From an uncultured Alphaproteobacteria bacterium (lineage in GTDB: Bacteria; Pseudomonadota; Alphaproteobacteria; RF32; CAG-239): a stretch of 64,000 bases of DNA. Numbering within the stretch: position 1 is the stretch's first letter; each line of letters begins with the position of its first letter. The stretch spans positions 2,216 through 66,215 of the forward strand of contig CANPYJ010000002.1 in the NCBI GenBank assembly GCA_947588275.1, in the 5' to 3' direction. Below are positions 14,277 to 62,432 of this stretch, in pieces. Below the pieces are notes generated by a model that had not been told where the DNA came from, searched no databases, and was given only the letters and a program-made list of their open reading frames with translations. Both the position numbers and the translations under genes were made by a program.

Positions 14277-15092
14277 TTAATTACCGGTGCATTGTTGAAT
14301 ACAGTGTGCGGTAATTCCGTTTTTGTAACGTGCGTCATACGTAATCAAGCGTGTTGTAGATCTGCACTCTCCGATAATAATTGAACCGTTTGTCACGCGA
14401 CTCCAACCTTCGGTATAGACTACGGCTGGGCAGTTGTTGCTGTTTGGACAGCTTACGGTACAAGGCATGCCCTCATGTTCTCCGTCTTCTGTTGTATAAT
14501 CAAATTCGCCGCTAGTAAATTTAGAAAAGATTTCATAAGCCGTGTCGTCCCATGTCATCTGGCCACCTTGGCGTAAAGCATAGAACGGAATACACAGCTG
14601 TAGCGACGAATCCTTAATCGGACACGCCGGCCACACTATATAAGCCGGAACCTTGAAATGCGGAATTGTGGCAATGTCTTTTCTGTAATCATCATAGCCA
14701 TACAGCAAAATTTCTCCGGAACAGGAATATTTATCCGGCACTTTAGTTCCGGCCGGCGTATCAGGATCAAGACCATAGCATGATGCCGGCACACACCTGC
14801 CTTCCGAAAGGGTCACGGTTCCCTTCGGACAAGCTCGGTTTTCTCCGGTAACCTTATATTTGGTTTCGCAGGTTTTGCCGGCAGGACAGGAATCCAGCCA
14901 CTCATTTTTATAGCTGACGCAGGCTTTATAATTTGTATCAAACGGACAATTAATCGAATCAAGACAATTAGCCGGCAGAGAGGAACTATAACCCAGACTT
15001 GCGCAATCAGCATTGGTGCAATTTGCGGCCCAAGCCGAGGTTGTGAACATTGTTCCGATACTCAACGCCGCAATAAAAGGTAGCTTTTTCAT
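14277..15092 (-). CDS. secreted cysteine-rich protein, unknown family
   Basis: Signal peptide MKKLPFIAALSIGTMFTTSAWA. There are about 19 Cys in the mature part, no TM helix, and a GGAGG RBS. The region is visibly more AT-rich than its neighbours. Confidence 0.75.
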   Translation of the reverse strand: MKKLPFIAALSIGTMFTTSAWAANCTNADCASLGYSSSLPANCLDSINCPFDTNYKACVSYKNEWLDSCPAGKTCETKYKVTGENRACPKGTVTLSEGRCVPASCYGLDPDTPAGTKVPDKYSCSGEILLYGYDDYRKDIATIPHFKVPAYIVWPACPIKDSSLQLCIPFYALRQGGQMTWDDTAYEIFSKFTSGEFDYTTEDGEHEGMPCTVSCPNSNNCPAVVYTEGWSRVTNGSIIIGECRSTTRLITYDARYKNGITAHCIQQCTGN

Positions 15093-18336: not shown

Positions 18337-19854
18337 CTATTCCTCAGTGAACCAGTGTTCGCGCGCGTTCATGATGATTTTGTTGGCTTCCTGAATCGAA
18401 ACCGTATTCTCGCCCAAAATCTCAATCAGCTCGTCCGCCGCCAAATCGGCCAAATCATCAATCGTCTTGATGCCTTTGCCGGCCAGCGTCAGCAACATGT
18501 CGCGGTCAAGCCCTTCCACACTCTGAAGTTTGTCGTCAAGGCCGAGCGACTTGCTCTTTTCCTCAAATTCTTTGTCACGTTTTTCGACATATTCTTTGGC
18601 ACGCGATTGCAGCTCTTTGGCAACATCTTCGTCAAAGCCTTCAATCTCCGATAATTCGCGCAAATCCACCATCGCAATCTCATCGACATTTGAGAAACCT
18701 TCGGCAATCAGCAGATGAGCAATCATCTCGTCCACATCAAGAGCTTCCATAAAGCGCTGCGAATGAACTTTGTTTTCGTTGGAACGGCGCTCCTGCTCTT
18801 GTTCTTCGGTCAGGACATCAATGTCACAGCCAAGCAGCTGCGAGGCTAATTTGACGTTTTGACCGCGACGGCCGATGGCGATGGAAAATTGCTCCTGCGC
18901 CACCACGGCTTCAATGCGGTTGTTTTCTTCATCTATAACCACCTTGGTAACTTCAGCCGGTGCTAAGGCGCTGACAATATATTGCGCGCGGTCTTCCGAA
19001 TATGGCACAATATCAATCTTTTCGCCCTGTAGCTCGGTTACCACCGCCTGCACGCGAATTCCGCGCAAACCGACGCAAGCGCCAACCGGATCAATGGTCA
19101 TGTCTTCGGCGCGGACGGCAATCTTGGCCTTGGAACCGGGATCGCGAGCCACACCCATGATTTTGACGATGCCGTCATAAATTTCGGGAACTTCCGACGT
19201 AAACAGTTTGGCCAAAAACTCAGGACAGGTGCGCGACAAGAAAATCTGCGGACCTTTGGCTTCGCGGCGGACATCCAGCACATAGGCGCGGACGCGGTCG
19301 CCGTTTTTGAACTTCTCCCGCGGAATAATCTCGTCGCGGCGCAAAACCGCCTCGGTTTTGCCAATGTCCAGAACAACATTGCCAAACTCAATGCGTTTGA
19401 CCGTGCCGTTGACAATGGTGCCGATTTTTTCTTTGTATTCTTCAAACTGCTTGTTGCGCTCAGCCTCACGAACCTTTTGCATAATAACCTGTTTGGCGGT
19501 TTGGGCGGCAATGCGGCCAAAGTCAATCGGCGGCAGGGGATCAATCAGAAACTCGCCGACCTTGATTTTGGAATCGTATGCTTTGGCGTCTTCCAACAGA
19601 ATCTGAGCGGCTTCGTTTTCAATCTCTTCGGGGTTGGACACAACTTCGCGATAGCGTGCCATGCTGATAGCACCGGTTTTGCGGTCTATCTGGGCGCGAA
19701 TGTCGTGCTCAAAACCATATTTGGAACGTGCGGCTTTTTGAATGGCAACTTCCATTGCTTCAAAAACGTCATCACGATCGATGTTTTTTTCGCGGGCTAC
19801 CGTATCTGCAACCAATACGATTTCCGGTCGGGGCATATTTTCATAAGTTTCCAT
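18337..19854 (-). CDS. nusA: transcription termination/antitermination factor NusA
   Basis: S1 and KH domains (GACVGLRGIRVQAV) plus acidic C-terminal HhH repeats. Conserved operon position. Confidence 0.96.
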   Translation of the reverse strand: METYENMPRPEIVLVADTVAREKNIDRDDVFEAMEVAIQKAARSKYGFEHDIRAQIDRKTGAISMARYREVVSNPEEIENEAAQILLEDAKAYDSKIKVGEFLIDPLPPIDFGRIAAQTAKQVIMQKVREAERNKQFEEYKEKIGTIVNGTVKRIEFGNVVLDIGKTEAVLRRDEIIPREKFKNGDRVRAYVLDVRREAKGPQIFLSRTCPEFLAKLFTSEVPEIYDGIVKIMGVARDPGSKAKIAVRAEDMTIDPVGACVGLRGIRVQAVVTELQGEKIDIVPYSEDRAQYIVSALAPAEVTKVVIDEENNRIEAVVAQEQFSIAIGRRGQNVKLASQLLGCDIDVLTEEQEQERRSNENKVHSQRFMEALDVDEMIAHLLIAEGFSNVDEIAMVDLRELSEIEGFDEDVAKELQSRAKEYVEKRDKEFEEKSKSLGLDDKLQSVEGLDRDMLLTLAGKGIKTIDDLADLAADELIEILGENTVSIQEANKIIMNAREHWFTEE

Positions 19855-32415: not shown

Positions 32416-33288
32416 ATGCGCAAAGTTTTGGCTTTTGATGTCGGCGGTACCAAAATTGCTTATGCGGCTATTGCCGCAGACGGCAGTTTTGCCAATGAAA
32501 TTATCAAAGTCACAACGCCTCGGTCGGCCGCCGCCGTTTATGAGCTGTTGCATACGGTTATCAAGGGACAGGAACATGAAATCGACGGTGTCGCAATTGC
32601 TACGGCCGGGGCAATAGATAATGCCAACCTGCATATCATCAGCCGTGTGGGCAATCTTCCGGAAGGGTATGGAGAGCTTGATTTTCAATCGTTGACTCAT
32701 AAGCCGTTGTTGCTTGAAAATGATGCCAATGCCGCGGCTTGGGCAGAATTTTGTCTCGGCGCGGCCAAAGGCGCAAGCAATGCTGTCGTTTTAACGCTCG
32801 GCACCGGCGTCGGCGCGGGAATAATCGTCAATTCCCGATTGCTGAAAGGCAAGTCCGGTGCGGCCGGCGAAATGCATGTGCGCTTTAATAACGAACATCG
32901 GCGGCTTTGTACCTGCGGATTATGGGATTGTCTGGAAACTTATGTTTCGGGCAATGCCCTTACGGCCGACGCCAAAGATTTTATGGGTGCGGAAATGACC
33001 AGTTATGACGTTATCCGCGGATTAAAATCCAATGATCAAAAAGCTCGCGCCGCTTTTGACCATTGGCAAAATTGTCTTGAAAATGCTTTGGTGATGATGG
33101 GAAATCTGTTTGATCCGGAAGTTATCGTTTTGTCCGGTTCCATGGCGCAATTTGTGGAGTATGACAAAGTCGGGCGTCAGGCAAACCAAGATATTTTGAC
33201 CAGCCCGTTCGCCTTGCGGCCGGCCAAGTTTGAAAACAATGCCGGCATGCTTGGCGCCGCCTTGCTTTTATTGGAGAAAATCAAATGA
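32416..33288 (+). CDS. ROK-family sugar kinase (glucokinase-like)
   Basis: ATP motif LAFDVGGTKIAYA and ROK zinc motif CTCGLWDCLE. The probable start is MRKVLAF at 32416. Confidence 0.85.
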   Translation: MRKVLAFDVGGTKIAYAAIAADGSFANEIIKVTTPRSAAAVYELLHTVIKGQEHEIDGVAIATAGAIDNANLHIISRVGNLPEGYGELDFQSLTHKPLLLENDANAAAWAEFCLGAAKGASNAVVLTLGTGVGAGIIVNSRLLKGKSGAAGEMHVRFNNEHRRLCTCGLWDCLETYVSGNALTADAKDFMGAEMTSYDVIRGLKSNDQKARAAFDHWQNCLENALVMMGNLFDPEVIVLSGSMAQFVEYDKVGRQANQDILTSPFALRPAKFENNAGMLGAALLLLEKIK

Positions 33289-33659
33289 AATATTCGCTGC
33301 CTGTACATGAGTTTTCATTTAATAAAATCAAAACCGGACAACGCAAAGTCGGCGTCCATCTGCTGGACAAACAAGCTCAGCAGATTAAGATAAACGATGT
33401 TTTGGAACTCAAAAACGGCACTACCGGTGAGCTCTTGGAACGACAGGTCAGCGGCATCGCCGTGTTTGACAATTTCAGCGATTTGGTCGATGCGTTATCG
33501 CCGCAAAGCCTCGGTTACAACAGTAAGGAAGAGATTATGCTGCGTTTGCGGCGGATTTATTCGCCAAATGCTCAGCAAAGTCTTAATGCGGTCGGATTTT
33601 TTCTGAAACCGTTGCCGGAGAAAAACTCGGTTAAGACGCGCTCGCCTATCGAACGCTGA
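33285..33659 (+). CDS. ASCH-domain protein
   Basis: 124 aa with an ATGA overlap to the kinase gene. A PUA-like/ASCH-type N-terminus (FSFNKIKTGQRKVGVHLLD) is plausible. This is a weak family call. Confidence 0.5.
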   Translation: MKYSLPVHEFSFNKIKTGQRKVGVHLLDKQAQQIKINDVLELKNGTTGELLERQVSGIAVFDNFSDLVDALSPQSLGYNSKEEIMLRLRRIYSPNAQQSLNAVGFFLKPLPEKNSVKTRSPIER

Positions 33660-33676
33660 AAAACCAAAAAAATTGC

Positions 33677-33705
33677 TTGCAAAATAAAAAGAAACCTTTT
33701 ATTAA
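33677..33705 (+). promoter_or_regulatory. candidate promoter upstream of the repeat array and tRNA-Ser
   Basis: TTGCAA (33677-33682), 17 nt, TATTAA (33700-33705). Confidence 0.3.
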
Positions 33706-33756
33706 ATATGCCGATAAATGTACGAAAGCTGAATTATTATAAACATATGCAGTGCT

Positions 33757-34072
33757 GAATATATGCAGTGAATGGATGAGTGGCAGAGAGGCTGGAATCG
33801 CAGCGTAGCGGAGATTGGTGCAGGCGCTTTGAAAAAAGCGGCAAACCAATTAAGCGCGACAAAGCGGAGCTTTGAAAGCACGCATCCGGCAAATGTATGA
33901 AAGCGAATTATTTTGAATATATGCAGTGAATGGATGAGTGGCAGAGAGGCTGGAATCGCAGCGTAGCGGAGATTGGTGCAGGCGCTTTGAAAAAAGCGGC
34001 AAACCAATTAAGCGCGACAAAGCGGAGCTTTGAAAGCACGCATCCGGCAAATGTATGAAAGCGAATTATTTT
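33757..34072 (+). repeat. two identical 158-bp tandem units, each containing the tRNA-Ser leader plus its first 21 nt
   Basis: 33757-33914 and 33915-34072 match base for base by eye. A third start of the unit (34073-34110) continues into the intact tRNA. A diverged copy of the unit tail lies at 33711-33756. Confidence 0.9.
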
Positions 34073-34089
34073 GAATATATGCAGTGAAT

Positions 34090-34181
34090 GGATGAGTGGC
34101 AGAGAGGCTGAATGCGCGCGACTCGAAATCGTGTATACGGGGTGACTCGTATCGGGGGTTCAAATCCCTCCTCATCCGCCA
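34090..34181 (+). tRNA. tRNA-Ser (anticodon CGA), class II with a long variable arm, encoded CCA
   Basis: Acceptor GGATGAG/CTCATCC. Anticodon arm CGCGA-CTCGAAA-TCGTG. Variable arm ATACG..CGTAT. T arm GGGGG-TTCAAAT-CCCTC. Discriminator G followed by CCA. Confidence 0.92.
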
Positions 34182-34329
34182 TTTTAATTAAAAAGACGTT
34201 ATCATAAATTTCATTGAATTGCCGTTTCCGCTGAAAAAAAACATGAGAAAAGTCAGTGAAATATTAAAATCCGGTCATTAAACGGCAGTGTTTCCAAACT
34301 GATTTATTGAAGAACATAAATATTTTATG

Positions 34330-35889
34330 TTACTTGGCATATGAAGCCGGACAAAGTTTTGAACTGCTATTTTTTCTTAAAAAAGGAAACAGAGCTGCCA
34401 GAAGAAGCAGGAAGATGCAGAGCCCGAGAATCAAGCTGTTTCCGGTTTGGGCATATAGGGCAGGTATTGAGGATAACTTGGGCAGTTTCAGGTCAAGGAT
34501 GCCTTTTTGGTTGAGCGGAATTTGTCCGATGACAACGCCGGTCGGCGAAATGAGGGCCGAAATACCGGTGCCGGAAACGCGGGCTATGGCAAGGCCTTCT
34601 TCTACGGCACGTAGTCTGGTTGCGGCTAAATGTTGGTGAGGACCGGCCGAATCGCCATACCAGCCGTCATTGGTGATGTTGACCAGCCATTGCGGCCGGT
34701 TTTGCGAATCGACTATTTCGGCCGGAAAAATAATTTCATAACAAACCAATCCGCCAAAAGCCGGGAGACCGTCTACTGTAATGACTTTTGGCCCATCGCC
34801 GGCCTTAAAAGTTCCGACGGCATTGGCCACCGGTCGTATCCAGCGCGGCAGCCACTCGCGCAGAGGGACGTATTCGCCAAAAGGAACCAGATGCGATTTG
34901 TCGTAGCGGGCGGCAATTTGTCCATGGTCGTCAACGACAAACAAAGAGTTGGACGAATCATAACGGCCGTCTTCATATTCGTTATGTCCGATGCCGCCGG
35001 TAATCAGCCAGCCTTTGGGCGGCACGGCGTAACGCAGCATGTCTCGGTGGTAGTCGTCGAATTCCAGAGCATAGGGAAATGCGGTTTCGCTCCAAATAAC
35101 GACATTGGCTTTGTCTTGTTCGGGCAGCTGCGACATTTTGATATGAGCCGCCAGATTATCTTCCAGCATGGCCCGGTTCCATTTAAGCGTCTGCGGGATA
35201 GCCGGCTGTACCAGTCGAATAGTGATGTCCGACGGCGCATAGGGATAGTTTTGCAGACGCCAATATCCCCAACCTTCTGACAAGGCAAATATGAGAACGG
35301 GCAGGCCAAGGCCGACAGCCATATTCCAGGGGCGGCGGGCGCTAAACAAAAAAATCGGCGCGGCGGCAGCCAAAAGCAGCAGAAGCGACAGCAGATACGT
35401 GCCGCCCAATGATGCCGTCTGAATGAGAGAATCCGAAAAAGTCAAGACAGAGCCGAGCAGATTCCATGGAAATCCGGTCAGAACAAAACTGCGCAGCCAT
35501 TCAAAGATAACCCAGAGCGCGGCAAACGATAGATAGCGTGCGGGCAAGGTTTTGAAGCAGTGGCTGAGAGCTGCCGGAAAAGCGACAAACAGTCCGAAAA
35601 AAACGCCGGCAGCCAAAAAGGTTATCGGAACCAGCCAGCCGAACAGGCGGGCATCTAGAAGCAGAGCGTTGTTGACCCAAAGCAAGCCGAAGGCAAAATA
35701 GGCAAAACCGAAACTGTAGCCGCGACGAAAAGCCTGTCCAAATCCTTGGGCGCGGTCAATTAACCAAATCAGTATCGGAAAACTCAAAAAAAGCACCGGC
35801 CACACATAACACGGCGGCAAGGCGGTCACGGCCAGCCAGCCGGCCCCAAAAGCGGTTACAGAGGGGTGCTTTTGCAGTTTGTTAATCAT
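34330..35889 (-). CDS. lnt: apolipoprotein N-acyltransferase
   Basis: Polytopic N-terminus plus a CN-hydrolase domain with catalytic-Cys context GGLVCYEIIFP. Conserved position after corC. Confidence 0.9.
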   Translation of the reverse strand: MINKLQKHPSVTAFGAGWLAVTALPPCYVWPVLFLSFPILIWLIDRAQGFGQAFRRGYSFGFAYFAFGLLWVNNALLLDARLFGWLVPITFLAAGVFFGLFVAFPAALSHCFKTLPARYLSFAALWVIFEWLRSFVLTGFPWNLLGSVLTFSDSLIQTASLGGTYLLSLLLLLAAAAPIFLFSARRPWNMAVGLGLPVLIFALSEGWGYWRLQNYPYAPSDITIRLVQPAIPQTLKWNRAMLEDNLAAHIKMSQLPEQDKANVVIWSETAFPYALEFDDYHRDMLRYAVPPKGWLITGGIGHNEYEDGRYDSSNSLFVVDDHGQIAARYDKSHLVPFGEYVPLREWLPRWIRPVANAVGTFKAGDGPKVITVDGLPAFGGLVCYEIIFPAEIVDSQNRPQWLVNITNDGWYGDSAGPHQHLAATRLRAVEEGLAIARVSGTGISALISPTGVVIGQIPLNQKGILDLKLPKLSSIPALYAQTGNSLILGLCIFLLLLAALFPFLRKNSSSKLCPASYAK

Positions 35890-36772
35890 CTTTTTCCTGG
35901 GGTGTGCAGGCTTGCGGGCGGATTATCATTATCTTTTTAATGCGGCGCGGATCGACTTCCAGAATGCGGAATTTGAGTCCGTCGACGTCTTCTATGATTT
36001 CGCCGCGTGAGGGAATCCGCTGCGCCAAATTAAAGACATAGCCGCCCAAAGTTTCAATTTCTTCGGCATCAGGTTGCTCAAGTTTTTGTGCCAGGTCAAT
36101 GTTGCAGGCTTCTTTGATTTCTTCAAGTTCGGCTTTGGCGTCGGCAATGATTTCGCCGTTGTTTTGAACAATGATAATCGGGTCTTCGTCCAAATCGTAT
36201 TCGTCTTCAATATCTCCGACAATTTCTTCCAGCAAGTCTTCTATGGTTACCAGACCGTCAATTCCGCCGTATTCATCCACGACCATCACCATGTGTACTT
36301 TGTGAAGCTGCATTTCGCGCAATAAGTCCAATACGCGCATTGATGGAGACACGAATTTGACATTGGGCGTGATAATCTCGGACACGCGGCATTTTTGCCT
36401 GCCGCGAACCAGATGCTTGACCAAATCCAAAACGTGCATGATGCCGACGACGTCATCGAGCGAACTGTCATATACCGGAATGCGCGAATGCCCTTTGGTG
36501 AGCATTAGTTCGGCCAGCTCTTCCAAGGTGCCGTCCTGACAAAAGCCGACAATGTCGGCACGCGGCACCATGGCATCGGCGCATTTTTTATCGCGCAGGC
36601 ATAGAATATTGTTAAGCAGCAGTTGCTCGTGTTCCGAAAATTGTTCTTCGCCGTTGGTGGAGGCTTCTTCAATCAAATCTTCAATCGTTTCGCGGACGGT
36701 TTCGGATTGGCGGCGGTGAAAAAGCCGGCCAAGCAGGCCGCAGACGGACGAATTTTTGGCGTCGTCAGACAT
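35882..36772 (-). CDS. corC: CorC/HlyC-family CBS-domain magnesium/cobalt efflux protein
   Basis: CBS pair plus a CorC_HlyC C-terminal domain. The ATG at 36772 has a GAGGAG RBS. The ORF-track start at 36787 overlaps ybeY. Confidence 0.85.
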   Translation of the reverse strand: MSDDAKNSSVCGLLGRLFHRRQSETVRETIEDLIEEASTNGEEQFSEHEQLLLNNILCLRDKKCADAMVPRADIVGFCQDGTLEELAELMLTKGHSRIPVYDSSLDDVVGIMHVLDLVKHLVRGRQKCRVSEIITPNVKFVSPSMRVLDLLREMQLHKVHMVMVVDEYGGIDGLVTIEDLLEEIVGDIEDEYDLDEDPIIIVQNNGEIIADAKAELEEIKEACNIDLAQKLEQPDAEEIETLGGYVFNLAQRIPSRGEIIEDVDGLKFRILEVDPRRIKKIMIIRPQACTPQEKDD

Positions 36773-36776
36773 AAGT

Positions 36777-37277
36777 TTACTCCTCATAGGGGTTTTTGAT
36801 GTTCATTTGGCGCAAAATGTCTATTTCAAGCTGTTCCATTATTTGAGCCTCGGCATCCGTTTGATGATCGAATCCGTATAAGTGCAGCAAACCATGAACC
36901 AGTAAATGGCAGAAATGGTCGTGCAGGCTGATGTTTTGGATTTGGGCTTCGCGCCGCAAAGTTTCCAAGGCCATTATCATATCGCCCAAGTCAAAAGTCT
37001 GATCGTCGGGCAGGGGAGCAAAGTCCGGATCGTCCAAATGAGCAAAAGACAAGATGTTTGTCGGCTTGTCAAGGCCGCGGAATTCTTTGTTTAAAATCTG
37101 CACGGCCGCATCGTCGGCGAGCTGCAGGTTGGCCGAAAGCGGCAGTTCAGTCTGCAACCGGTCTTTAAGCCTTGCGGCAACCAAGGCGAACACATCGGTG
37201 CCGATGGTTTCGGCAGCGGGCAAATCTTTGCGCCAGCCGGAAGCGGCAACAGTCAGATTAAGACGCGGCTTATTCAT
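36777..37277 (-). CDS. ybeY: rRNA maturation endoribonuclease YbeY
   Basis: Zinc motif HGLLHLYGFDH. The start MNKPRLNL at 37277 overlaps the phoH stop. Confidence 0.92.
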   Translation of the reverse strand: MNKPRLNLTVAASGWRKDLPAAETIGTDVFALVAARLKDRLQTELPLSANLQLADDAAVQILNKEFRGLDKPTNILSFAHLDDPDFAPLPDDQTFDLGDMIMALETLRREAQIQNISLHDHFCHLLVHGLLHLYGFDHQTDAEAQIMEQLEIDILRQMNIKNPYEE

Positions 37278-38235
37278 CACCGTATTCTTTCTTGCTTCGT
37301 TCCTCGTAGGCTTTGACGATTTTGGCAACCAGACCGTGGCGGACGACGTCGGCGGCGTTAAAGCGTACCGAGCTGATGCTTTCGGTTCCTTTAAGAATAT
37401 CCAGCGCATCGCGCAGGCCGGAAATGGTGCCGCGCGGCAAGTCGACTTGGCTTAGGTCGCCGTTGATGACCATGCGCGAGTTTTCGCCGAGACGCGTCAA
37501 AAACATTTTCATCTGCATCGGGGTGGTGTTTTGCGCCTCATCCAAAATGACAAAAGCATTGGAAAGCGTGCGGCCGCGCATAAAGGCCAGCGGCGCAATC
37601 TCAATTTCGCCCAAGGCAATTTTTTTATCCACTTGTTCGGCCGGCAGCATTTCGTAGAGAGCGTCGTAGAGCGGGCGAAGGTACGGGTCGACCTTTTCTT
37701 TGAGGTCTCCCGGCAAAAAGCCCAGGTTTTCGCCGGCTTCCACGGCCGGACGCGAAAGGATGATTTTGTCGATGCGGCCTTCAAGCATCATCGAGACGGC
37801 CAGCGCTACCGCCAAATAGGTTTTGCCGGTACCGGCGGGGCCTAAGCCGAAAACCAACTCATTTTTCAGCATTTCCTGAATATAGAGGGCTTGGGTGGCC
37901 GACCGCGGATAAATATGGCGTTTTTTGGTTTTGAGAACAATATTGCTCAAATCCTGGGCAGTGGCACTGTCCGATTGACCGCCGCAGATGCGGATGGCGG
38001 CTTTGACTTCTTCTTCGCCGATGGCAATGCCTTTGCTGACTTTGTCGTATAAAACGTCAATTGCGGTTTGAGCCTGCGCGGCGGCTTCGGCTGGACCCTT
38101 GATATTCATCTGATTGCCAAAAGAAGTGATTTCAACGCCCAAAATTTTTTCCATCAGTCGCAGATTGGCATCCTGCGCGCCGACAAGCTGTTGGACAAGA
38201 GTGTTGTTGTAGAGTTCAAAATTGATTTCCGCCAT
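37270..38235 (-). CDS. ybeZ: PhoH-like ATPase (YbeZ)
   Basis: Walker A GPAGTGKTYLAVA. Conserved miaB-phoH-ybeY order. Confidence 0.92.
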   Translation of the reverse strand: MAEINFELYNNTLVQQLVGAQDANLRLMEKILGVEITSFGNQMNIKGPAEAAAQAQTAIDVLYDKVSKGIAIGEEEVKAAIRICGGQSDSATAQDLSNIVLKTKKRHIYPRSATQALYIQEMLKNELVFGLGPAGTGKTYLAVALAVSMMLEGRIDKIILSRPAVEAGENLGFLPGDLKEKVDPYLRPLYDALYEMLPAEQVDKKIALGEIEIAPLAFMRGRTLSNAFVILDEAQNTTPMQMKMFLTRLGENSRMVINGDLSQVDLPRGTISGLRDALDILKGTESISSVRFNAADVVRHGLVAKIVKAYEERSKKEYGDE

Positions 38236-38238
38236 ATT

Positions 38239-39573
38239 TTAGTTTCCTTCTTTTTGGCCGGCCAGCGAGTTGACGTTGGCGTCGGTAATTTTGATGTTGA
38301 CAATGCGGTTGAGATATTCGGCCGCAAGGCTGCTGTGGACGTTTTGCATATAGGGAGAGCGTCCGATAAGCTCTCCCTTATGGCGTCCTTTGATGTCGAA
38401 CAGTACCGGCATAATTTTACCGACACTTTCTTTATTAAACTTTAATTGATATGAAAATAAAAGCTCTTGCAAGGTTTCCAAGCGCTGTTTTTTGATTTTT
38501 TCTTCTATCTGATTGGGCATCAGAGCCGCCGGCGTGCCGGCGCGGCGGGAATATTTGAACGAGAAAGCCTGTGCAAATCCGACTTGGCGTATCAAGTTGA
38601 GCGTGGCTTCAAAGTCTTGGTCGGTCTCACCGGGGAATCCGACAATAAAGTCTGACGAAAACTGTAAGTCCGGCCTAGCGGCTTTGAGCTTGCCGATGAT
38701 TTCCAGATATTGGCCGCTGGTATGGCGACGGTTCATGGCTTTAAGGATTTTGTCCGATCCTGACTGTACCGGCAAGTGCAAATAAGGCATCAGCTGCGGC
38801 AAGTCATGATGACAGGCAATCAGTTCATCGTCTATGTCAGCTGGGTAAGAAGTGGTGTAACGAATGCGCTCGAGCCCTTTAATCTCGGCCAAGCAGCGCA
38901 AGAGCCACGCCAGATTGCGTTCTTTGCCGGCGGCATCGACACCGTGATAAGAATTGACGTTTTGGCCCAATAAGTTGATTTCGACCGAACCTCCCTCTAC
39001 CAAAGTTTTGGCTTCGGCGACCACATCGGCAATCGGGCGCGAAGTTTCGATACCGCGGGTGTAGGGTACGATGCAATAGGTGCAGAAGTTGTCGCAGCCT
39101 TCCTGAATGGCCAGATAAGAACAGCCGCCCATTGATTTATTGGCAGGCAGAAAGTCAAATTTTGATTCCGGCGGAAATTCGGTGTCTATCAGCGGTATTC
39201 CCCGTCGGCGCGAAACTTTTTGCAGGATTTCGGGCAGTCGATGATAGGTGAGCGGGCCGGTGGCAAAATCTATGAATGGCGCGCGGCGCGCAATTTCTTC
39301 GTCTTCGGCCTGCACCACACAACCAACCACGCCGATAACGGTGTCTTTGCCGGCGGCTTGGCGTTCTTCGCGAACAAGGTTCAGGCGGCCCAAGTCGGAG
39401 AAAACTTTTTCGGCCGCTTTCTCGCGAATATGACAGGTGTTGAATATCACCAAATCGGCGTCTGCCAAGGTTGACGCCGCAGTATATCCCAAACTTTCCA
39501 AGATGGCGGCAATTCGGTGCGAATCGTATACATTCATCTGGCAGCCGAATGTCTTGATATAGTAGTGTTTCAT
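38239..39573 (-). CDS. miaB: tRNA-2-methylthio-N6-dimethylallyladenosine synthase
   Basis: UPF0004 N-terminus (TFGCQMN), radical-SAM motif CDNFCTYC and a TRAM C-terminus. Confidence 0.93.
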   Translation of the reverse strand: MKHYYIKTFGCQMNVYDSHRIAAILESLGYTAASTLADADLVIFNTCHIREKAAEKVFSDLGRLNLVREERQAAGKDTVIGVVGCVVQAEDEEIARRAPFIDFATGPLTYHRLPEILQKVSRRRGIPLIDTEFPPESKFDFLPANKSMGGCSYLAIQEGCDNFCTYCIVPYTRGIETSRPIADVVAEAKTLVEGGSVEINLLGQNVNSYHGVDAAGKERNLAWLLRCLAEIKGLERIRYTTSYPADIDDELIACHHDLPQLMPYLHLPVQSGSDKILKAMNRRHTSGQYLEIIGKLKAARPDLQFSSDFIVGFPGETDQDFEATLNLIRQVGFAQAFSFKYSRRAGTPAALMPNQIEEKIKKQRLETLQELLFSYQLKFNKESVGKIMPVLFDIKGRHKGELIGRSPYMQNVHSSLAAEYLNRIVNIKITDANVNSLAGQKEGN

Positions 39574-61968: not shown

Positions 61969-62357
61969 AAAAAACCACCATAAAGGTGGCTTTTTTGTAA
62001 TTGGAGCGGGCAATGGGATTACTTCGCATCGCTGCGTTCACTTCGGCAATCGGCTAAAGCCGAACGGCGTTCTTCCGCCCGCCTTTTCCTCGTAGTCGGA
62101 CCCACTTCCTCGTGGCTCCTAATCCGTCGCCGACTATAATTACAAAAAAAACCACCATAAAGGTGGCTTTTTTTGTAATTGGAGCGGGCAATGGGATTAC
62201 TTCGCATCGCTGCGTTCACTTCGGCAATCGGCTAAAGCCGAACGGCGTTCTTCCGCCCGCCTTTTCCTCGTAGTCGGACCCACTTCCTCGTGGCTCCTAA
62301 TCCGTCGCCGACTATAATTACAAAAAAAACCACCATAAAGGTGGCTTTTTTTGTAAT
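61969..62357 (-). repeat. two ~178-bp tandem units, each containing the last 19 nt of tRNA-Gly plus its terminator
   Basis: The tRNA 3' fragment TGGAGCGGGCAATGGGATT (+ strand) occurs at 62002, 62180 and 62358. The 123-nt modules 62021-62143 and 62199-62321 are identical by eye. The terminator hairpin occurs three times. Confidence 0.9.
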
Positions 62358-62432
62358 TGGAGCGGGCAATGGGATTCGGACCCACGACATCAACCTTGGC
62401 AAGGTTGCGCTCTACCCCTGAGCTATACCCGC
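62358..62432 (-). tRNA. tRNA-Gly (anticodon GCC), encoded CCA
   Basis: Minus strand: GCGGGTA-TA-GCTC-AGGGGTA-GAGC-G-CAACC-TTGCCAA-GGTTG-ATGTC-GTGGG-TCCGAAT-CCCAT-TGCCCGC-T-CCA. Confidence 0.93.

Follow-up and report, generated by a model that had tools for sequence, protein, structure and literature searches.

Repeats linked to transfer RNA (tRNA) genes have been known in Escherichia coli since 1978 and were first seen as a 178-bp sequence repeated 3.14 times after tyrT. To our knowledge, there is no agreed origin for them. [quoted passage not shown] Here we describe a tandem array in front of the tRNA-Ser(CGA) gene of an uncultured Alphaproteobacteria bacterium, within a 64,000-nt stretch (the window) of contig CANPYJ010000002.1 (positions 2,216 to 66,215, assembly GCA_947588275.1). 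Like the TLRs (RtT RNA, Rfam RF00391), the array consists of short non-coding units in a tRNA operon, here directly upstream of tRNA-Ser, that occur in tandem and each carry a terminal piece of the adjacent tRNA. We are confident that the module held in these units is conserved, structured and tandemly duplicated at the tRNA-Ser locus, and much less confident about the role of its RNA. On balance, we lean towards reading the array as the product of tandem amplification, the amplified module being a conserved, structured non-coding RNA that forms part of the tRNA-Ser transcription unit and corresponds, on the 5' side, to the TLRs.

All features of the array lie on the + strand. Positions 33756–34110 form a tandem repeat with a period of 158, 2.2 copies and 100% matches (Tandem Repeats Finder, TRF). 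A preliminary description of this DNA had claimed two identical 158-bp units followed by a third unit start that enters an intact tRNA, and both claims were borne out. Units 1 and 2 (33757–33914 and 33915–34072), each made of a 17-nt leader, a 21-nt tRNA start, the module body and a tail, were identical by TRF, repeat finding and direct string comparison, and a third 17-nt leader opens the segment 34073–34181 that contains tRNA-Ser(CGA) at 34090–34181, recognized by ARAGORN and by the Rfam tRNA model (52.4 bits). The 38-nt block of leader plus tRNA start (GGATGAGTGGCAGAGAGGCTG) occurs three times, at 33757–33794, 33915–33952 and 34073–34110. Its tRNA part copies positions 1–21 of tRNA-Ser(CGA), that is, the acceptor 5' strand plus the D stem/loop, and stands at 33774–33794 and 33932–33952 as an exact 21-mer shared with 34090–34110. 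The module RNA, X-type and tRNA-Ser-linked, is 115 nt long, with copy 1 at 33774–33888 (a seed sequence of the covariance model described below) and copy 2 at 33932–34046, both scoring 107.8 bits. An A/T-rich tail and leader containing AATTATTTTGAA (33888–33931) follows; this tail motif is conserved in modules in front of tRNA-Ser(CGA) and tRNA-Ser(UGA), hereafter CGA-type and UGA-type, and the tail doubles as leader to whatever comes next, another unit or the tRNA. A diverged copy of it, also reported earlier, was found again at 33711–33756 (core 33716–33754) with 84–88% identity to the unit tail, and is either the original leader or what is left of an older unit.

The unit had no BLAST match in the 64-kb window outside the array. 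It folds at −44.8 kcal/mol and is more stable than shuffled versions of itself (z = −3.4). The preliminary description saw no credible open reading frame (ORF) here; a 42-amino-acid ORF is in fact present in each unit (33772–33900), but it is not conserved. A small protein made from it was rejected since its ATG is absent in other species, as was a coding module in general, module lengths ranging from 98 to 120 nt and differing by non-multiples of 3.

The module belongs to a family spread across gut Alphaproteobacteria. A genome scan with the first 21 nt of the tRNA as query, limited to one genome per species, yielded 55 loci (cited below by L numbers), all in metagenome-assembled genomes (MAGs) of uncultured gut Alphaproteobacteria. 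Their hosts include "Azospirillum sp." CAG/UMGS bins, Proteobacteria bacterium CAG:495 and Candidatus Scatocola, and their sources also include human, deer, mouse and chicken gut MAGs. A second copy of the 21-mer lies 155–166 nt upstream at 9 of the 55 loci. The CGA-type layout shared among species runs from GGATGAGTGGCAGAGAGGCTG through GAATCGnAGC-loop-GCGrAGATCGGCG and a variable hairpin to aGCCAATTAAGCGCGAGAGGGC..GCCC..GCGCGCA, the A/T-rich tail (AATTATTTTGAA) and the tRNA. With a covariance model made from 19 module copies, full modules were found in 18 species-level genomes in addition to the window, every one directly upstream of tRNA-Ser, so that the search of other genomes proposed earlier did return tRNA-linked copies; those outside the seed scored 29–62 bits (L086, L037 copy 1, L006, L029 and L022). 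The model detected no copy away from tRNA-Ser over 467 kb, and across metagenomes the core pattern had true matches at tRNA-Ser loci only, the rest being chance occurrences in GC-rich coding DNA. Viral contigs contained neither the X-core pattern nor the tRNA 21-mer; a phage origin was rejected, the two viral matches to a looser junction pattern being chance matches in coding DNA. The module thus does not occupy many unrelated sites in the manner of dispersed repeats such as repetitive extragenic palindromes (REP) or miniature inverted-repeat transposable elements (MITE), its copies being linked to tRNA-Ser only. A literature search found no description of this motif.

The structure of the module was supported by covariation. 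Its conserved insert X (GAATCG...GCC; 33795–33847 and 33953–34005), the core shared by CGA-type and UGA-type modules, holds two hairpins, P2 and P3. P2 (33797–33815) consists of AUC/GAU, a symmetric GNA/GRA internal loop and GC/GC; it pairs in all alignment cells, with pairs switched from GC to AU in 5 sequences and from AU to GC in 1. P3 (33816–33848) closes a variable-length hairpin and reads UGGU/ACCA in the window and CGGC/GCC(A) elsewhere, with compensatory change at two pairs, in the window (GAUUGGU/ACCAAUU) and in L037 (GAC/GUC). The imperfect hairpin noted earlier at 33814–33850 therefore exists, as the conserved helix P3 together with its variable hairpin; per-sequence folds show that this inner hairpin differs in sequence and length in every species. 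P4 (33854–33883) is a bipartite hairpin with an outer part GCGC/GCAC(GC) and an inner part CAAAGC-GGA-GCUUUG (33860–33874), in which compensatory changes and per-sequence folds agree. All 4 inner pairs are compensated across species, in the variants GGGC/GCCC, GGAC/GUCC, AAGC/GCUU (window), AGAC/GUCU, CGGC/GCCG and AAUCUU/AAGAUU. The palindrome GCTTTGAAAGC, earlier proposed as a helix at this place, did not hold up, homologues favouring CAAAGC-GGA-GCTTTG at 33860–33874.

In a model-based alignment of 22 distinct modules, 92% of the cells of P2, P3 and P4 pair. Eight pairs (26 cells) are changed on both sides, a level reached by 0 of 500 shuffles, and in a control with slid partners pairing fell to 18–37% of cells. 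An independent MAFFT alignment folded with RNAalifold gave five compensatory pairs as well. A helix GCUG/CGGC proposed by RNAalifold was rejected: none of its pairs is compensated, L037 disrupts it, and its competitor P3 has compensatory changes at two pairs. The nucleotides at junctions are highly conserved and the loops variable.

The module was also compared with a true tRNA. The segment CATCCGGCA (33883–33891), read from sequence as a remnant of the tRNA 3' end (CATCCGCCA in the tRNA), can close with GGATG at 33774–33778; as had been noted, CGCATCCGGCA and the true 3' end CTCATCCGCCA are identical at 9 of 11 positions. In the window the GGATG/CATCC closure is followed by G-GCA, compared with a seven-bp acceptor stem and N-CCA in a canonical tRNA. 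The acceptor-closed body of the preliminary description stands for this sequence, in which GGATG pairs with CATCC (33883–33887), but the full CATCC closure occurs in only ~7 of 22 homologues. Over the 22 modules, 72% of the cells in the five closure columns are paired, without covariation or compensatory change; the covariation check suggested earlier thus found compensatory pairs in the P3 hairpin but none in the GGATG/CATCC closure. ARAGORN finds only two true tRNAs in the 64 kb, the Rfam tRNA model at E ≤ 10 has 34090–34178 as its sole match within 33600–34300, and a T arm with a GTTCRANYC loop is present in none of the 22 aligned modules. P2, P3 and P4 do not correspond to tRNA arms. Derivation of P4 from the tRNA-Ser variable arm was tried and rejected, the similarity being marginal (p = 0.002–0.03) and confined to two modules against one of two tRNA-Ser(UGA) sequences; all other comparisons were non-significant and we do not rely on it. 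In Rfam searches of the window arrays and five related loci, no family beyond tRNA scored meaningfully.

Across the window and four species that share the upstream gene, the module is 69–80% identical, variable hairpins included, and in the same species the upstream protein is 56–65% and the intergenic spacer 45–63% identical. We infer that the module is under constraint and that its RNA structure has been kept by selection. These values bear on the idea of a functionless, decaying pseudogene, a partial tRNA-Ser duplication whose apparent conservation would come from gene conversion with the tRNA and from recent shared ancestry. Truncated or degenerate copies are indeed common (L006, L022, L029, L031, L041 copy 1 and L064), loss appears frequent, and at UGA-type loci the 5' piece follows the sequence of the adjacent tRNA. 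Gene conversion, however, would cover only the 21 nt shared with the tRNA and leave X and P4 without a donor; it would account neither for overall module identity above that of the host proteins nor for compensatory substitutions at eight pairs, and we regard a pseudogene as very unlikely.

A second context of the X core suggests how the module is built. At L054 and L101 it stands upstream of tRNA-Ser(UGA), fused to that tRNA's own 5' 35–36 nt, and after X the same tRNA resumes for 13 of 13 nt in L101 and 9 of 10 nt in L054. Because tRNA sequence flanks X on both sides, X lies exactly inside the anticodon loop of a 3'-truncated tRNA-Ser(UGA) copy. In the CGA type the site is in the D loop, X coming after G21. 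Judged from sequence, the module is a rearranged partial tRNA-Ser copy that carries a conserved structured insert, and it may have originated as a partial upstream tRNA-Ser copy that acquired or evolved this insert. The UGA-type modules (L054:834-1095; L101 reverse complement 900-1508) end in a stem AAACCGUC...GACGGUUU and then UUUUCU; this stem reuses the 3' strand of the anticodon stem and resembles an intrinsic terminator or attenuator. L101 contains 2.5 tandem modules with compensatory differences.

A single promoter-like motif serves the module copies and the tRNA. The promoter suggested earlier at 33677–33705 coincides with TTGCAA-N17-TATTAAAT (33677–33707, + strand), an instance of a TTGCAA-N17-T(T/A)TAAT motif conserved before this tRNA across species. 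With a spacer of N16-19, the motif is present in 44 of 56 loci, usually 41–52 nt upstream of the first module or, where the module is absent, of the tRNA, and never between module and tRNA. A generic sigma-70 scan did not flag it. A promoter inside the unit was sought on the + strand and none was found, and CGA-type modules, that of the window included, have no consistent terminator between P4 and the tRNA. Because the motif precedes the module and the tRNA and never separates them, co-transcription followed by nuclease processing is the arrangement we propose. A single precursor of array plus tRNA would start from the motif at 33677–33707, and cuts by an RNase E-type activity in the A/U-rich tail and by RNase P at the tRNA-like 5' junctions would release a discrete ~115-nt RNA.

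The same arrangement could serve a cis-acting leader, in which the module, as a regulatory or folding element, governs transcription read-through or the maturation of tRNA-Ser. It might act as a switch that senses a ligand or a tRNA, or by forming alternative pairings, in which, for instance, the tRNA's 3' strand would be contested by the duplicated 5' piece. In favour of this are the constant placement of the module after the promoter-like motif and before the tRNA, its conserved junction nucleotides and variable loops, and a segment, GAUCGGC, that can pair in two mutually exclusive ways (AUC plus GCUG upstream, or GCCAAUU downstream), both largely maintained; UGA-type modules, in addition, end in the terminator-like stem and UUUUCU. 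Against this, CGA-type modules lack a consistent terminator between P4 and the tRNA, ~60% of related species have the same tRNA and promoter-like motif and no module, a duplicated sensor has no obvious use, and Rfam models of riboswitches, T-boxes and other cis-regulators gave no match to the module. Such control by the leader strikes us as rather improbable. For the RNA of the favoured tandem-module reading, our best guess is a co-transcribed, processed leader RNA; a metabolite-sensing switch seems less likely to us than a stable leader-derived small RNA or a decoy connected with how tRNA-Ser is matured or used.

Copy number differs between assemblies and between species. Seven metagenome contigs encode an upstream 124-amino-acid protein identical to that of the window and so belong to the window's own species. 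L001, L004 and L005 show one unit and then the tRNA, in L007, from another sample, unit 1 leads into a second unit, and L002 and L003 break inside the repeat. In these low-coverage short-read assemblies the differences may reflect either polymorphism or incomplete assembly of the repeat, and the second unit is not peculiar to the window assembly. That this unit was made by the assembler is consistent with the 100% identity of the two and with the broken or single-unit short-read contigs, but the contig from the other sample enters a second unit, and diverged, hence real, tandem copies exist in L063, L066, L037 and L101. For the module itself, present in ~20 independent assemblies, the assembly artefact that the preliminary description listed among its three readings is rejected, and for the second unit we consider it highly improbable.

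Tandem copies are identical in the window, show few differences in L063 and many, some of them compensatory, in L066, L037 and L101; loci hold 2.2 units in the window and 1–2.5 in relatives. Tandem duplication has taken place independently in several lineages. Direct repeats of 21–66 nt flank every module, and the two identical copies of the window probably date from a recent event between the 38-bp direct repeats, either unequal homologous recombination or slippage in replication. These repeats also permit scarless loss, and therefore a patchy distribution and varying copy number. Syntenic species are empty (L017, L055 and L067), filled (L018, L030, L036, L039 and L037), truncated (L029 and L064) or reduced to the tail (L051). 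Several variants were observed besides. First, at L053:2084-2108 a solo, slightly diverged tRNA 5' piece plus GGAAT abuts an intact tRNA-Ser(CGA), like a footprint left after deletion of a module. Second, L006:1356-1585 holds an allele of the window species whose 5'-truncated module, without the tRNA 5' piece and without P2, opens with ...GACATTAGAAATGGATGCCAATTGGTGC; with one A fewer in its P3 loop, L006 is apparently a recombinant or truncated form. This allele (GGATGCC...GCATCC) raised the idea of the module as an independent ~87-nt acceptor-closed gene, which was rejected, L006 (41 bits) being one of several 5'-truncated variants alongside L029 and L037 copy 1.

A companion array lies on the − strand of the window (61969–62432). 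Here tRNA-Gly(GCC) at 62358–62432 is followed by two downstream 126-nt modules of a second type, Y (62199–62324 and 62021–62146), identified by TRF (61969–62376, period 178, 2.3 copies) and by homologous modules elsewhere. The preliminary description held that this locus has the same architecture as the tRNA-Ser array; it is instead the mirror image, each Gly module ending in the tRNA's 3' 19 nt plus a terminator copy, repeated downstream of the gene. The array is seen with one module, two, or two plus part of a third, and the Gly arrays of the window, L043 and L012–L014 belong to the Y family. A scan of the loci for partial tRNA copies also yielded 3' fragments downstream of tRNA-Ser(CGA) and tRNA-Gly(GCC). 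The Y layout begins with the terminator and a hairpin made of a local T-stem piece and its complement, and continues with ACUAC, three hairpins and GAGU, then the T-loop 3' half through CCA, so that Y appears from its sequence to be, in effect, a precise T-loop insertion in a partial tRNA copy.

Several further observations concern the Y family. Its conserved core reads ACTACnAG .. GGCAKACGGRAGTATGCC .. variable hairpin .. GCAACTYAAG .. GAGT. Y modules stand beside four tRNAs, Ser CGA (L021, L047, L048 and L059), Ser UGA (L101), Gly (L043) and Thr (L105), and are always embedded in T-arm pieces of the local tRNA. The Thr case is a two-copy Y array downstream of tRNA-Thr(UGU) in a viral contig (L105:8234-11420; IMG/VR uncultivated viral genome (UViG) 3300029770_000229). 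It is followed by a chloramphenicol acetyltransferase gene (cat), a 194-amino-acid ORF, a P4-type integrase and phage terminase genes; the integrase, of prophage type with an Arm-DNA-binding domain, is ~2 kb from the Y array, and a diverged 5' 40-nt copy of tRNA-Thr lies ~250 nt upstream. This contig is the only link between a module and a recombinase that we found. In L048, L024, L056, L057, L021 and L041, further 15-nt copies of the tRNA 3' end (CCTCCTCATCCGCCA), 400–800 nt downstream of tRNA-Ser(CGA), delimit short modules of other, unrelated kinds; the 3' flank of this gene therefore gathers several sorts of tandem tRNA-linked unit.

Both window arrays are flanked by housekeeping genes. 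The genes neighbouring the module are surA, rsmA, the gene of a ROK kinase, that of the 124-amino-acid protein, lnt and corC. The 124-amino-acid protein (33285–33659, + strand) has no Pfam match and is encoded immediately upstream of tRNA-Ser(CGA), an arrangement seen in at least 8 other species (L017, L018, L029, L030, L036, L039, L055 and L062), with or without the module. The flanking Lnt is up to 65% identical to its closest relatives, from MAGs named "Alphaproteobacteria bacterium", and synteny with them breaks exactly at the tRNA. A search for orthologous loci through lnt synteny yielded none, as relatives (~60% Lnt identity) have lnt-HTH-metK (HTH, helix-turn-helix) and no tRNA there. 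In L008–L010 the order is miaB-phoH-ybeY-corC-lnt-HTH-metK-trmB, and the block of the window (34330–39573) ends at lnt. Because tRNA-Ser and the array sit at this breakpoint, the tRNA locus coincides with a rearrangement boundary. Elsewhere in the window, short tandem repeats occur at 14702–14738 and 18557–18603 (TRF; periods 19 and 24, ~2 copies, 82–83% matches).

The junctions and neighbours described above also speak to a mobile origin. The modules could be miniature non-autonomous mobile elements or integration scars, X (5') and Y (3') units being attP-like remnants or minute elements that insert in tRNA loops and bring a replacement tRNA end, mobilised now or in the past by a tRNA-targeting tyrosine recombinase encoded elsewhere, with tandem copies representing repeated integrations; this resembles the footprints of alternating attachment (att) sites and elements that the preliminary description put second. 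Junctions do fall exactly in tRNA loops (D at 21/22, anticodon at 35/36, T at 56/57 or 57/58). One X core occurs at different positions in two tRNA-Ser genes, and one Y core beside Ser, Gly and Thr tRNAs, flanked by local tRNA pieces. Syntenic relatives show filled, empty, remnant and solo-repeat states, and in L105 a distance of ~2 kb separates the Y array from a prophage integrase. It is, moreover, generally known that integrated elements can be flanked by partial copies of a tRNA, in some cases with the partial copy upstream (PMC9897764). However, a tblastn search with the L105 P4-type integrase, sensitive to related integrases only, detected no recombinase near the module, neither in the window nor at the 55 tRNA-Ser loci; housekeeping genes flank both window arrays; at 140–180 bp the gene-less units fall short of the size of a functional attP; and neither the 467-kb model search nor the metagenome-wide pattern scan turned up X apart from tRNA-Ser. 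The helices, variable in sequence and length and with compensatory changes and G-U pairs, act like RNA helices rather than protein-binding DNA sites, and a simple att crossover would not yield the resumption of the tRNA after X in UGA-type units. The loop junctions and the filled and empty sites thus stand in favour of the earlier att reading, and the lack of a nearby recombinase and of copies outside tRNA-Ser, together with the RNA-like helices, against it. We consider a mobile element or scar unlikely as an account of the array, while a mobile-element origin, possibly shared with the 3'-side repeats, is a live possibility. A bolder version, that X (5') and Y (3') are two families of tiny gene-less structured elements which invade D, anticodon and T loops and spread together with a copy of a tRNA end, an intact tRNA being regenerated each time, seems to us something of a long shot. 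If true, this would make them the bacterial equivalent of the mobile tRNA introns of archaea, or else miniature "attP-only" elements mobilised in trans by integrases that target tRNAs, and would offer an origin for the E. coli tRNA-linked repeats.

A conserved RNA module amplified within the tRNA-Ser transcription unit has points against it as well. What follows X in the CGA-type module does not significantly resemble the rest of tRNA-Ser(CGA) (p > 0.1), with the exception of a CATCCG remnant in some species; because of this dissimilarity, the case for origin from a decayed paralogue draws on the 5' 21 nt, on the CATCCG remnant at the 3' end and on modules of the UGA type. The position of X at 21/22 in one type and 35/36 in the other is the chief point that simple vertical descent does not explain and hints at insertion, and presence that differs among syntenic relatives could mean gain as well as loss. 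Covariation was counted on an alignment fitted to the model and on related sequences, and the 5' segment (module positions 1–24) is highly conserved yet unpaired in the model. Transcription, processing and stability of the module RNA are all inferred, and the closure needed for RNase P at the module 5' end is complete in ~1/3 of homologues. Even so, among the three readings of the preliminary description, tandemly amplified tRNA-derived non-coding RNA genes are the best supported, by the compensatory changes, the single promoter-like motif and duplication in several lineages.

The locus extends a TLR-like phenomenon to a distant uncultured gut lineage and to both sides of tRNA genes. On the 5' side this involves a new candidate for a structured RNA, ~115 nt long, well conserved, covarying and without a counterpart in Rfam, and structured cores recur beside different tRNAs, each fused to local tRNA pieces. 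The ~20 species, with their truncated and tandem variants, form a comparative set in which a functional RNA can be weighed against a mobile element, or both. In practical terms, such arrays break short-read assemblies and can pass for tRNA pseudogenes.

Three other known systems invite comparison. Sublocation classes of tRNA integration sites were reportedly distinguished by Williams in 2002. Like the att scars of tyrosine-recombinase integrative elements at such sites, a class that extends to cis-mobilisable remnants, the tRNA-Ser array has direct repeats of a tRNA segment around an insert, a regenerated intact tRNA, junctions in loops and tandem accretion, and relatives show both filled and empty sites. 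It differs in that the insert is only ~120 nt, gene-less, without a recombinase found nearby, and evolves like a structured RNA, and in that the 5' end is duplicated, whereas att scars usually duplicate the 3' end. Small RNAs are also released from tRNA precursors, as with 3'ETS-leuZ of E. coli. The Ser module is likewise a non-tRNA part of a tRNA transcript, one that tRNA-processing nucleases would excise and that could act in trans, but 3'ETS-leuZ and its kind are short spacer fragments, and the module, as read from DNA, is a tRNA-derived ~115-nt RNA of several hairpins. Archaea have non-canonical tRNA introns and split tRNA genes. The resemblance lies in structured inserts placed precisely in D, anticodon and T loops and in related inserts in different tRNAs; here, in contrast, the host is bacterial and the interrupted copies are truncated, so that splicing could not restore a tRNA, and an intact copy adjoins.

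The closest likeness remains that to the TLRs. The Gly array matches their layout almost exactly, with a period of 178 and 19 nt of the tRNA 3' end, and the Ser array is its mirror image, lying upstream and carrying the tRNA's 5' 21 nt rather than the 3' end. Neither array matched the RtT covariance model at E ≤ 10, and five related loci gave no match to it at E ≤ 0.05. The hosts are gut Alphaproteobacteria rather than Enterobacterales, and the Ser module differs from the TLRs in that a conserved, covarying structure is documented for it.

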